A stretch of DNA of 64,000 nt from Eledone cirrhosa (Eukaryota), in the NCBI GenBank assembly GCA_964016885.1, contig OZ024746.1, positions 34,410,001 through 34,474,000 on the forward strand. The letters run 5' to 3'. Position numbers and translations under genes: made by a program. Of this stretch, positions 6,817 through 59,583 are shown piece after piece. The notes under the pieces are model-generated. The model was given only the letters and a program-made list of their open reading frames with translations, made no database searches and was not told the origin of the DNA. Position 1 is the stretch's first letter, and the number at the start of each line of letters is the position of its first letter.

Positions 6817-6864
6817 TAAGCGGACAGATCTCTGTTTCATACTGTTGATATTCCTCAGAGCTTA
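6817..6864 (-). ncRNA. Type I hammerhead ribozyme motif
   Basis: Minus: TAAGCT-CTGAGGA-ATATcaacaGTAT-GAAA-CAGAgaTCTG-TC|CGCTTA; stems I, II and III can form. Confidence 0.7.
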
Positions 6865-7170
6865 GCACTCTCCTGGTGTGTTGAAAAATTATGAATGTTG
6901 GATTCTTATCGTCGGTCCAGCAATAATTGAAAATTAGAATTGGTGCTCTGAAATAGCGATGTGCATATGAATGTATATATCGTGTATTTGATAATACACT
7001 GTATGCTTAATTAAAAGCATTTTGAAGACCTTAGGCTATTGTTTCAAAGCAGTGACTATGTCACTTTTTTTTTTCAACAAACAAAGTTCCTGATTATTAT
7101 CAGTTCCTGATTATTACTGGAATTATATAAGAATACAACATTCATAATTTTTCAAGAGACAGAGGGGTGC

Positions 7171-7218
7171 TAAGCTCTGAGGAATACCAACAATATGAAA
7201 CAGAGATCTGTCAACTTA
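7171..7218 (+). ncRNA. Type I hammerhead ribozyme motif
   Basis: TAAGCT-CTGAGGA(7177-7183)-ATAccaacaaTAT-GAAA(7197-7200)-CAGAgaTCTG-TC|AACTTA. Confidence 0.7.
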
Positions 7219-7455
7219 TCTCCCTTTGTTTGTTGAAAAAAGAAGTGACATAGTCACTACTTTAAAACAATAGCGTAAGGTCTTCAAAGTGATTTTAATT
7301 AAGCATACAGTGTATTACCAAATACACTATATATACATTCATATATGCATCGCTATTTCAGAGGACCAATTGAAATTTTATATGTATATATATATATATA
7401 TATATATATATATATATAATATAAGATCAAAAGATGGTTAAAGGAGTTCCATGTA

Positions 7456-7522
7456 TTTTATTATGCGCATTTCAAAAACAAACATCATCATGCAATAATA
7501 TTTGTGTTTTCATCAGATAAAA
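7456..7522 (-). ncRNA. Type I hammerhead ribozyme motif
   Basis: Reverse complement of the 8330-8396 motif. Confidence 0.75.
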
Positions 7523-8329
7523 CAGGAGAACATGATATGAAGGCTAAAAAACACTTGTGGATAGTGCAGTTTTAAATCAACATATGAAAAGTGGTTTTAG
7601 ATTGATGTGTGATATTGTGAAAAATATTTTGAAAACCGTTGGAAGATAATGTATAAATTAAAAGAATTTGAAAATTAACGAAGGGAAGATATGTACGAGG
7701 AAAAAATGTTTATTTAGGGAGGGGGGGGGGAGGATGAAAAAAGGGGGAGGAGATGAGAGTGAAGGTGGAGACGGAGAGATGGGTGATAGAGAGAAAGAGA
7801 TAGTTTTATAACTGAGAAAAAGATATATTGTTTTACATAGAGAGGTTGAGAACCGTAGAGAGGTTGAGAACGGTTCTCAACCTCTCTATGTAAAACAATA
7901 TATCTTTTTCTCAGTTATAAAAACTATCTCTTTCTCTCTATCACCCATCTCTCCCTCTCCACCTTCACTCTCATCTCCTCCCCCTTTTTTCATCCTTTCC
8001 ACCCCCCCCTCCCTAAATAAACATTTTTTCCTCGTACATATCTTCCCTTCGTTAATTTTCAAATTCTTTTAATTTATACATTATCTTCCAACGGTTTTCA
8101 ACCTCTCTATGTAAAACAATATATCTTCTCTCAGTTATAAAAACTATCTCTTTCTCTCTATCACCCATCTCTCCCTCTCATCTCCTCCCCTTTTTCATCC
8201 TTTCCACCCCCCTCTCTAAATAAAATATTTTTCCCAATATCACACATCAATCTAAAACCACTTTTCATATGTTGATTTAAAACTGCACTATCCACAAGTG
8301 TTTTTTAGCCTTCATATCATGTTCTCCTG

Positions 8330-8396
8330 TTTTATCTGATGAAAACACAAATATTATTGCATGATGATGTTTGTTTTTGAAATGCGCATAATAAAA
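8330..8396 (+). ncRNA. Type I hammerhead ribozyme motif
   Basis: TTTTAT-CTGATGA(8336-8342)-stem II (CAAATATTAT/ATGATGTTTG)-GAAA(8379-8382)-TGCGCA palindrome-TA|ATAAAA; 6-bp stem I. Confidence 0.78.
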
Positions 8397-57720: not shown

Positions 57721-57990
57721 ATAAATAAGTAAATTAAATTAAATAAAATAAGATAAATAAATACATACACAAGCACATAAACACACACTAGTCACCCAGC
57801 AGACACAAGACTATACACACTAGTCACACATCACACATAACACTATACACACACGCAAACGCATGCGCAAAGAAGACAAAATAAAATAAGATAAACAAAC
57901 AAGCAAATAAATAAATAAATATATAGACAGACTGAACAAAAAAAAAAAATGGCGTAGACATACAACACAACAGGAGGAACAATGAATATA

Positions 57991-58050
57991 ACACCACTGA
58001 CGATGTTGCAGATGTGCAACGAAAGATTTATGTAAACTATATATATATGT
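57991..58050 (+). ncRNA. Hammerhead motif in PLE 3' UTR (mirror copy ~54640-54698, minus)
   Basis: CTGACGA(57997-58003)-t-GTTGCAgatgTGCAAC-GAAA-G.TTTAtgTAAAC-TA; stem I is poorly paired next to the cleavage site. Confidence 0.6.
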
Positions 58051-58431
58051 GTTTGTCTATATTGTATCTGTATTATTTTTGACCGCCGGTCAGTCAATGG
58101 CAACATTGAGGACCGAGTAAGTTAGATCACAGATATATATATATAAAAGACAGCGAGAAGCGAAAACCAACCAAACAGTGAGTGTGTTCTGTTATTAATT
58201 CTGGCAATATTACGCAAATATGACCCTCCCCAAATATAACAATATCTGTTTCGACACACGATTTCATATAAAAAACCTCGCAAAACTAATTCATCGCCGC
58301 TATATATATATATATATATATATAATATATATGCATGCATGTATGTTTGTATGTATGTATGTATGTATGTTTGTATGTATGTATGTATGTATGTATGTAT
58401 GTATGTATGTATGTATGTATGTATGTATGTA

Positions 58432-58985
58432 CAATCTGTCTCATGGTCGGGTCGTTGGCGACCAAACTGGCAACCCCACCAAGGTTTCCTGGTGAGGAGG
58501 GCGTCTTTGGAGATCCTGCAGGACTAAAAACAAAACCTGTCAAAGGGCAAAGAAGTCTTAAGAGTCAATGGCCATCCGAAATGACCGGGAGAGATTACCC
58601 ATTAGCCTTTGTCAAGGCAGAATTCTAGAAGGAAAACTCTGATATAACACCTGCAACCCTGATGGTGTCCAATGATGTTGACATGTTCTTCTTTTTGGTA
58701 AATATCATCTTCGTTAAGAGAGTGGGCCTGGCTTTGTGCAGTGCCTTTGCTCACTAAAAGGATTCACGGCACAGGCATTGCTGTATATCTGGAGATCGCT
58801 GCACTTGTCGTCACATGATACCATGGCCCCAGCACTGTGTCAATAATTGTCACAATTGTAGTGTTTGTACCAGAGTTTTCAAGTCGCTGGCTGGACTAAA
58901 AATCACACTCGTCAGCGCATCGGTAGGCGTTCTCCTACATGGATATAAAGTAGAGGCCGTACTTGAAAACGAATTGGCAGCCACC
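58432..58985 (+). mobile_element. Probable RTE-type 5' region or non-autonomous derivative
   Basis: 58440-58580 is homologous to 49790-49928; downstream [15 protein letters not shown] is C2H2-like; embedded in (GTAT)n. Confidence 0.45.
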
Positions 58986-59073
58986 ATGTATATATGTATG
59001 TATATATGTATGTATGTATATATATATATATATATATATATATATATATATATATATATATATATATATATAT

Positions 59074-59583
59074 AAGTATGTACACGTACATACATATATG
59101 TATACAGACGTACAGTAGTATGCATATATATATATATATATATATACATACATGCACACATGTATATATTTACGTATGGATTCACCGAACATTTATTATA
59201 ATGCTCGGTGTGTTTGTAAACAAAAATCCCGTATTAAGCCGTAGTATCCAGCAACCATCGTTGCTCGTTTGTTCAACACTGACAAAGGAACGCTGTACTA
59301 GTTTCAAGCTTATTAGCTATCGTCAGCAACGTATACCTTCCTGGAAGATTGTTGAACGTATATACTTGCCTTATGCATACTAACAGCTGAGAAGCCCAAT
59401 TTGCATATCGAGTGGATTATTCGGCCGGGTGCACCGACAAAGATAAACGGAAAAAAATGAAACGAAATTTCATTTCCCACTCTTAGTACGGCCGTTACTT
59501 AAATATAAGTATGTACACGTACATACATATATGTATACAGACGTACAGTAGTAGGTATATATATACATACATGCAAACATATA
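59074..59583 (-). mobile_element. Family C retrozyme-like element, 1.2 tandem units
   Basis: 59074-59150 recurs at 59507-59580 (period ~433 nt); circular permutation of 18203-18621. Confidence 0.8.
59290..59332 (-). ncRNA. Minimal type I hammerhead ribozyme motif
   Basis: Minus: ACGTTG-CTGACGA-t-AGCTaataAGCT-t-GAAA-CTAG-TA|CAGCGT. Confidence 0.8.

Follow-up and report, generated by a model that had tools for sequence, protein, structure and literature searches.

Known hammerhead-bearing elements and the Eledone cirrhosa window

Earlier work described minimal hammerhead ribozymes (HHRs) in the pseudo-long terminal repeats (pLTRs) of Penelope-like elements (PLEs), together with U3-A8 cores, motif pairs on opposite strands and an additional base ahead of stem II (Cervera and de la Pena, 2014; PMC4209133); the inverted arms, tails and Asn-rich inserts of PLEs are likewise in print (PMC3846280; PMC8557442). 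The purified PLE protein of an anole (PAc) cuts AT-rich DNA on both strands, extends the two and begins reverse transcription at two tail-defining internal sites, and its HHR cleaves only with the protein present (Frangieh et al., 2024; PMC11167929). Metazoan retrozymes, which lack open reading frames (ORFs), and their proposed link to PLEs are also in print (PMC7229834; Li, Clavereau and Pollet, 2026, preprint 10.64898/2026.07.22.740005). Here we analyze a 64-kb stretch of the genome of the octopod Eledone cirrhosa (C6:34410001-34474000; contig OZ024746.1 of the 2.996-Gb assembly GCA_964016885.1), hereafter the window, which has 35.4% GC and numerous (TA)n tracts. Thirteen separate insertions, located within (TA)n tracts or next to them, were found to carry type I HHRs close to their 3' ends; very probably, eight families of these represent truncated ends of PLEs encoding reverse transcriptase (RT) and GIY-YIG endonuclease, and four are ORF-less units likely copied in trans by PLE enzymes.

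Among cephalopods, an HHR-bearing Hydra-clade PLE of Octopus bimaculoides, Hydra-1_Obim, is given in the supplement of PMC8557442, and the 2026 repeat annotation of O. vulgaris reports 31 recently active PLE families without using the words hammerhead, ribozyme or Hydra (PMC13282606). In the part of the preprint of Li et al. (2026) considered here no mollusc is named, and its invertebrates are three insects and a coral. A literature search whose coverage mostly excluded subscription literature returned no paper on retrozymes of cephalopods or on a genome-wide HHR load. The elements of the window are of known kinds; what is added is a family census, the rule that two-armed insertions combine one short and one long end across clades, and the correlation of a single end site with a single arm. 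These bear on the integration route of PLEs and the purpose of their ribozymes.

Hammerhead motifs of the window

The strict type I descriptor gave 7 matches in 64 kb, compared with a mean of 0.01 and a maximum of 1 in 200 block-wise dinucleotide shuffles. A looser descriptor, which also accepted U3-A8 cores, a 1-bp palindromic stem III and an additional or mismatched base ahead of stem II, yielded 10 matches versus 0.12 in shuffles, and the one allowing stem II of up to 110 nt yielded 13 versus 0.25. The HHR motifs of the window are genuine, and their presence in numbers, proposed in the initial annotation of this DNA, is borne out by these scans. Intact core and stems, recognized by descriptor or by eye, are found in 14 motifs, and two further motifs, both of family J, have a 2-bp helix I. 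All 13 main sites of that annotation bear core and stems, as listed below from the core to H17:

6858 to 6823, minus strand: HHR of family A
7177 to 7212, plus strand: HHR of family A
7516 to 7462, minus strand: HHR of family B
8336 to 8390, plus strand: HHR of family B
18631 to 18661, plus strand: HHR of family C, intact, with U-U at the base of stem II
20557 to 20530, minus strand: HHR of family E, minimal, with an extra nucleotide before stem II
25646 to 25598, minus strand: HHR of family F
25885 to 25933, plus strand: HHR of family F
39166 to 39054, minus strand: HHR of family G, with a 90-nt stem II region
51849 to 51914, plus strand: HHR of family H
54089 to 54140, plus strand: HHR of family I
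57997 to 58030, plus strand: HHR of family J, with stem I of only ~2 bp
59326 to 59296, minus strand: HHR of the second family C insertion, intact

Stem covariation across copies was found in family A, the only family for which compensatory changes have been shown. In 20 aligned copies, 90.9% of the stem cells pair, as against 19-42% in slid-alignment controls, and double changes occur in 22 cells versus 7.3 in shuffled ones; because this control takes no account of subfamily kinship, they amount to few events, not 22. Positions 3/8 of family A are C-G in 18 of 30 loci, U-A in 7 and other combinations in 5. The Rfam hammerhead model appeared neither among the 150 of 245 window matches that were listed nor among the three matches for 7100-7300 (family A was the only family rescanned alone); the matches listed were to miRNA models only, driven by microsatellites.

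Families were defined from the window, where pairs were found by self-BLAST; the genome was searched with one tag per family and with the J ORF of the window, and tandem copies were fetched. Exact matches of the ten family tags summed to 49,544, and reversed controls gave 0. According to self-BLAST, the motifs lie mostly in outward-facing inverted pairs, several members of which had been overlooked: the partner arms at 51054-, 54692-, 18497- (with G5T) and 19154- (cut within the core), together with two old J copies having mutated cores at about 29165- and about 5730+. The motifs at 18628 and 59290, previously taken for a pair, belong instead to two separate insertions of family C. The variants noted at 19304 (family D) and 42214 (family K, core at 42217) do possess family-fixed U3-A8 cores, which are kept in 18 of 20 D loci and in 10,769 exact K tags, but their window copies are damaged, the D core carrying G12C and the K copy two stem changes. 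For the decayed motif near 36765, a better reading places the core at 36727 (to 36817) and makes it a U3-A8 type. No intact core is present at 9543-9584 or 37784-37830, for which no homologue was seen in 280 loci, and a query with 36700-37002 also revealed none at 37784-37830. A match at 28656, obtained with the loosest descriptor, is probably due to chance.

Families derived from protein-coding elements

Judged by their DNA anatomy, the twelve families fall into eight that stem from the 3' ends of protein-coding PLEs, namely B, D, F, H, J, K, a decayed Hydra-type copy and, by its GIY-YIG remnant, probably E, and four ORF-less retrozymes (A, C, G and I). The swarm consists mostly of ordinary 5'-truncated, two-armed insertions of autonomous PLEs. 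The initial annotation was right in tying many families to PLE RT and GIY-YIG, ORFs or their remnants being linked in 8 of 12, and its retrozymes stand on DNA criteria for A, C, G and I; its placing of most motifs in ORF-less elements does not hold, as the other eight families are truncated ORF-bearing PLEs. Nor do the families share only the catalytic core: the ORFs of B, F and H are 41-55% identical and those of D and K 57-58%. The insertions are as follows:

7419..8580, both strands: family B, insertion with two arms, each a 3' end of a Hydra-clade PLE; HHRs at 7516- and 8336+, short and long ends, fold-back centre
25453..25981, both strands: family F, insertion with two arms, each a 3' end of a Hydra-clade PLE; HHRs at 25646- and 25885+, long and short ends
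50809..51962, both strands: family H, insertion with two arms, each a 3' end of a Hydra-like PLE; HHRs at 51054- and 51849+, long and short ends
33989..37002, plus strand: decayed Hydra-type PLE between (TA)n tracts; HHR 36727 to 36817
19019..19489, both strands: family D, two-armed 3' ends of a Neptune-like PLE; core 19304+, left arm cut inside the core
42187..42312, plus strand: family K, single arm (short end) of a Neptune-like PLE; core 42217
54448..58300, plus strand: family J, a young autonomous PLE truncated at its 5' end and accompanied by an inverted arm; HHRs at 54692- and 57997+, short and long ends
55507..57720, plus strand: open frame of J, 737 aa; by eye, RT (DKS, YVDD), CX4CxxC linker and GIY-YIG-type C-terminus
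19704..19985, both strands: J ends, two-armed, truncated before the HHR; long and short ends
28837..31024, minus strand: older frameshifted J copy with mutated HHR core
5574..6083, both strands: old J-family end fragments, mutated HHR core near 5730
20441..20580, minus strand: family E, one-armed 3' end with minimal HHR 20557-

For B, D, F, H, J and K, an ORF was seen between same-strand HHRs, comprising in a single frame RT and, at the C-terminus, GIY-YIG (many copies are frameshifted), and the same endonuclease-positive set displays partial tandems (pLTRs), the inverted 5'-truncated arm and the one-sided tail. No window insertion holds two same-strand HHRs of one family, the arrangement by which Li et al. 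(2026) recognize active elements.

Families B (unit 3,940 nt, ORF of 738-775 aa in copies elsewhere in the genome, 8,325 exact tags), F (unit 3.75-4.0 kb, 16,699 tags over subfamilies), H (unit 4.3-4.5 kb, 575 tags) and the decayed copy at 33989-37002 appear to carry the marks of the Hydra clade, namely DKT, an RWK-like motif, CxCX5C, no CCHH, an HHR and a (TA)n target. [quoted passage not shown] Family H was assigned to the Hydra type solely by tblastn to B, matching along the ORF, and clade calls were made throughout by motifs, not by tree. Pfam gives Hydra-type ORFs no score. The Hydra clade, known from few families, is very abundant in this genome.

Families D (unit ~4.7-4.9 kb, 1,968 tags, GIY-YIG Pfam E 1.1e-5) and K (unit 4,915 nt) share DKG, a CX4CxxC linker and GIY-YIG. 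The CX2-5CxxC linker and GIY-YIG are features of Neptune/Nematis PLEs (PMC8557442), from which D and K differ by their fixed U3-A8 cores. The short ends of D, and some of K, often abut (CT)n/(GA)n rather than (TA)n (window positions 18980-19018 and 42032-42186), and this repeat prolongs the terminal letters of the element, as if it had been added or matched to the start site.

The linker is also present in J, which combines CX4CxxC, YIGET and DKS with some Nematis-like motifs recognized by eye; these motifs, rather than a tree, suggest that J is Neptune/Nematis-like. J stands apart from the published Neptune/Nematis elements (PMC8557442) by its DKS, by an Asn-rich insert and by an ORF of 1,210 aa. 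Its full unit is ~4,135 nt (tandem period), full frames reaching 1,217 aa, and the RVT_1 match of the window frame (E 1.5e-4) lies below the cut-off. In the genome search with this ORF, 63 of 63 scored matches were 100% identical over 710 aa, and 30 selected copies differed by 20 singleton changes over 2.6 kb each; the closest named homologue, from Octopus vulgaris, is 69% identical. Both 3' ends of J fall within the first ~27 codons of its own ORF, and ends inside the ORF start are likewise described for other PLEs (PMC3846280; PMC11167929). The intact J ORF (L008:1-3630) contains an Asn-rich stretch of ~170 aa in its N-terminal part, which recalls the N-rich inserts of Adineta vaga Penelope elements but is found at another position (PMC3846280).

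Family E (68 tags) is old and short. A GIY-YIG-like remnant was detected 0.7-0.9 kb upstream in longer copies at 2 of 37 loci (E 2e-9 and 3e-5), which share ~1 kb; no RT was seen there.

The window motifs have much in common with the minimal PLE hammerheads (PMC4209133): the palindromic helix III and the U3-A8 variant, the extra nucleotide between A9 and stem II (in E and J), the 2-bp helix I of D. virilis (in J), and opposite-strand pairs 100-700 bp apart, with mostly single motifs from truncated PLEs. They differ from those published by some very long stems II (G and H).

ORF-less tandem families

The four remaining families are represented in the window by five insertions:

6687..7384, both strands: family A, two-armed insertion of an ORF-less ~320-nt unit; left arm with the short site, right arm with the long site, (TA)n on the right only
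18200..18868, both strands: family C, two-armed insertion of an ORF-less 420-433-nt unit; 18631+ intact, 18497- with G5T, long and short ends
59075..59585, minus strand: second insertion of family C, one arm of ~1.2 units; short end, 5' boundary approximate
38857..39237, minus strand: family G, one-armed copy of an ORF-less ~690-770-nt unit; HHR 39166-
53865..54394, plus strand: family I, one-armed copy of an ORF-less ~625-640-nt unit; HHR 54089+

Elsewhere in the genome family A (564 tags) forms 320-nt arrays (locus L245), family C (10,046 exact tags) arrays of up to 5 units, and families G (210 tags) and I (320 tags) have periods of 689-767 and 625-642 nt, respectively. Family C also occurs in four contig sets of unrecorded kind. 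All four show the marks of non-LTR retrozymes, being short ORF-less tandems of low GC with one type I HHR per unit and a self-paired circle: the z-scores of the circular fold (one unit each) were -9.2 for A, -6.2 for C, -5.1 for I and -4.3 for G, versus -3.4 to +0.2 for six PLE 3' regions.

With the published metazoan retrozymes (PMC7229834; Li et al., 2026) these families share ORF-lessness, GC below 45%, one HHR per unit, the self-paired circle and co-occurrence with PLEs. Units G and I exceed the 170-400 nt given in PMC7229834 but lie within the 51-972 bp of the preprint. In contrast to the published retrozymes, no target-site duplications are visible in (TA)n here and no pLTR homology to a partner was found, and PLE-type fixed ends and inverted arms are not described for retrozymes in the parts of PMC7229834 and of the preprint considered.

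Identity in C, compared with regard to rolling-circle copying, is 0.937 within and 0.893 between arrays, values affected by terminal units that include flank, and between-array identity is as high as 0.987. Strand bias was counted as a possible trace of RNA editing: A>G versus T>C is 14/4 in C, 12/34 in I, 8/10 in G, 11/6 in A and 1/3 in J, those for B, D, F and H being too few. A five-unit C array (L247, C1:19313500-19318500) alternates 420 and 422 nt, which is a dimer periodicity; over 235 nt, no difference separates its unit 1 from its unit 3, and unit 2 is 99.6% identical to the last one. Family I forms a satellite-like array of more than 29 kb with one HHR per ~625 nt (L301, C2:376628000 onward).

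Insertion anatomy

Ends were measured by alignment to read-through copies and are expressed as offsets from the family tag. For every family there are one or two fixed end sites, which lie 100-350 nt downstream of the HHR. Two sites were found in A (177/203), B (108/191), C (248/304), D (142-145/184), F (112/190-198), H (119/248-254), J (249/292-307) and K (112/180), and mainly one in E (122-129 in 19 of 20), G (211-214 in 13 of 15) and I (344-345 in 12 of 13 terminal copies). The ends fall at TA-like letters, and PLEs and retrozymes alike stop at fixed sites in (TA)n, the A and C insertions sharing the anatomy of the coding elements. In tandem copies the sequence continues unbroken past the end sites and across the HHR, so the template must have been longer than, or permuted relative to, the HHR-cut linear monomer.

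Strand switches between neighbouring motifs are 71 outward and 5 inward after removal of overlapping loci. The 71 two-armed insertions, a tally from which K was excluded, comprise 56 with long and short ends, 1 short and short, 0 long and long, 3 with the long and an alternative short end, 8 with an unclassified end and 3 unscorable; where both ends could be classed as short or long, one of each is thus present in 56 of 57, and in the window in 7 of 7. The pairs of K are mostly long and short or long and truncated. An inverted arm within 1.5 kb upstream was observed at 58 of 140 loci of two-end families versus 0 of 50 loci of E, G and I (these loci overlap and are non-independent), and none was seen at 19 E loci for which 4.2 kb of upstream sequence was covered.

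Most start sites of the Hydra families are followed by a CTC-N-GAGY hairpin (in B and F at both sites, in H at the long site), as is the single end of I; the hairpin is absent after the start sites of A, C, D, E and J.

The inverted 5'-truncated arm, the optional one-arm tail and two start sites agree with PLE tails and inverted pLTRs described previously (Arkhipova et al., 2013, PMC3846280; Frangieh et al., 2024, PMC11167929), where tails measure 30-40 nt, as against 26-135 nt here. The TA-like letters at the ends here match the target, unlike the non-homologous AC-rich stem-loop at which PAc starts, and the two arms here nearly always use different sites, whereas the two strands extended by PAc used the same ones (PMC11167929).

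A very frequent small palindromic family without HHR, located in (TA)n at 17875-18068, 23089-23292 and 38682-38828, has one short and one long end; it recurs in many loci and looks like PLE-type ends truncated before the ribozyme. Other inverted repeats are centred on or flank (TA)n at 529-610 and at 50662-50736 with 52041-52115, the H insertion lying inside the latter, older pair.

Proposed mechanism and alternative explanations

On the preferred reading, the endonuclease would cut both strands of an AT-rich target, and the RT would start at internal sites of the RNA, as with PAc (PMC11167929). Priming of the two cut ends at two different start sites would give outward-facing arms with one short and one long end, whose cDNAs would be truncated and then joined head to head at their 5' ends; the ORF-less units would be copied in trans by PLE enzymes. 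The template may be a read-through multimer or an HHR-made circle, the DNA fitting either, and a circle as template has been proposed before (PMC4209133; PMC7229834). The window copies themselves are end products rather than sources of circles, since they have one sense HHR per strand.

A bolder version can be offered only tentatively. It supposes coupled double priming, in which one complex opens (TA)n and starts two RTs at two RNA-specified sites, so that every two-armed insertion, in three PLE clades as well as in retrozymes, is short and long and the one-site families are single-armed; the templates would be HHR-made circles, the genome, with ~2x10^5 hammerheads, would be among the most ribozyme-laden known, and retrozyme circles would be abundant in cells.

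Several observations weigh against these proposals. Besides the kinship left uncorrected in the covariation of A, no hammerhead is present in the minimum free energy folds of the J and K window motifs and of short excerpts of F and I. BLASTN of the A, C, G and I units against eight autonomous units gave no homology beyond TA-rich bits and names no partner. Long and long ends occur at one K locus (L293, probably two insertions), one insertion of G has two arms, which end near 214 and 105, and family G fits the start-hairpin rule poorly. HHR cleavage of PAc is dispensable for insertion in vitro, where the same start sites serve both strands (PMC11167929), and 8 of 9 Xenopus retrozyme dimers failed to cleave (Li et al., 2026).

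If the region were populated by small non-autonomous retrozymes, every one of which gave rise to circular RNA there, the four ORF-less tandem families with stable circular folds, C with at least 10,046 copies, would be readily accounted for; the link of 8 of the 12 families to PLE ORFs or remnants, and the lack of any window insertion with two same-strand HHRs of one family, make this highly improbable. The ORF-less units could alternatively be satellites, derived from PLE pLTR fragments and spread by unequal crossover with no RNA step, a scenario given in the preprint of Li et al. (2026). The continuous array of family I, the 420/422 alternation and identical units 1 and 3 of the C array, as a dimer duplication would give, and the lack of A>G strand bias in most families are in its favour. 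Dispersed copies, however, are 5'-truncated, with fixed ends joined to (TA)n, A and C show short and long inverted arms like autonomous PLEs, and HHR pairs covary in A; we regard such an origin as improbable.

The long near-perfect inverted repeats flanked by TA might recall miniature inverted-repeat DNA transposons with terminal inverted repeats, of which the HHRs would be passengers. Yet the arm ends are unequal and fixed, the inner breakpoints vary from ~60 nt to 6 kb and head-to-tail tandems exist; moreover, the arms reach into RT/GIY-YIG ORFs, which refutes this origin and leaves it a very slight probability. Chance matching in AT-rich DNA does explain ~3 matches of the loosest descriptor per 470 kb and fits the two unsupported decayed candidates. 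As an account of the swarm its probability is practically nil: the strict scan (7 versus 0.01), the exact tags against zero in controls and the covariation refute it except for 9543-9584, 37784-37830 and 28656.

The preferred reading, namely truncated PLE ends with ORF-less units likely copied in trans, implies that the motifs in HHR-dense windows of this genome are mostly signs of truncated PLE insertions rather than of loci that produce circles. The short and long arm rule and the correlation of a single end with a single arm are predictions for the existing in vitro assay of target-primed reverse transcription. For the integration of PLEs and the role of their ribozymes, one genome harbouring very young autonomous PLEs of three clades and four ORF-less families with the same ends is a compact test bed.

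Density, genome-wide load and other features

With a single descriptor, 13 matches were obtained in the window, 4 in the adjoining 60 kb and 36 in a random sample of 47 evenly chosen 10-kb stretches (470 kb), shuffles of which gave 1-4 matches. The density of the window, stated initially as one motif per 3-4 kb, is a selected local high, ~2.6 times the sample mean, and not a special locus. The local count is high because each two-armed insertion leaves two HHRs and new insertions stack in (TA)n.

The sample corresponds to ~70 true motifs per Mb, and thus to an estimated load of roughly 2x10^5 in the genome, which is a minimum, since the descriptor misses the motifs of D, I and J and many of those of K. 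Reported loads, obtained with different descriptors, are ~5,000 HHRs for mussel and as many as 120,000 for axolotl (PMC7229834), and 2,000-9,000 minimal HHRs per genome in schistosome, coelacanth and Xenopus (PMC4209133), the load here being larger than in the latter three.

The random sample contained further HHR families (L072:6638-7763, L062:6414-7121, L095:7973-9084), including a 528-nt tandem unit and two with Hydra-like ORFs, one of these with a U3-A8 core. No host gene is evident in the 64-kb window. Another dispersed family, with inverted and ~141-nt tandem copies beside (TA)n and no HHR seen, occupies 3600-4140, 5952-6510 and 24189-24617. Three copies of what we take to be a tRNA-like short interspersed element lie at 9200-9422, 23309-23534 and 33482-33602. 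Broken fragments of long interspersed elements with RT are found at 679-1053, 4318-5334 and 60287-63093, all on the minus strand, the last with an APE domain at 62524-63093.

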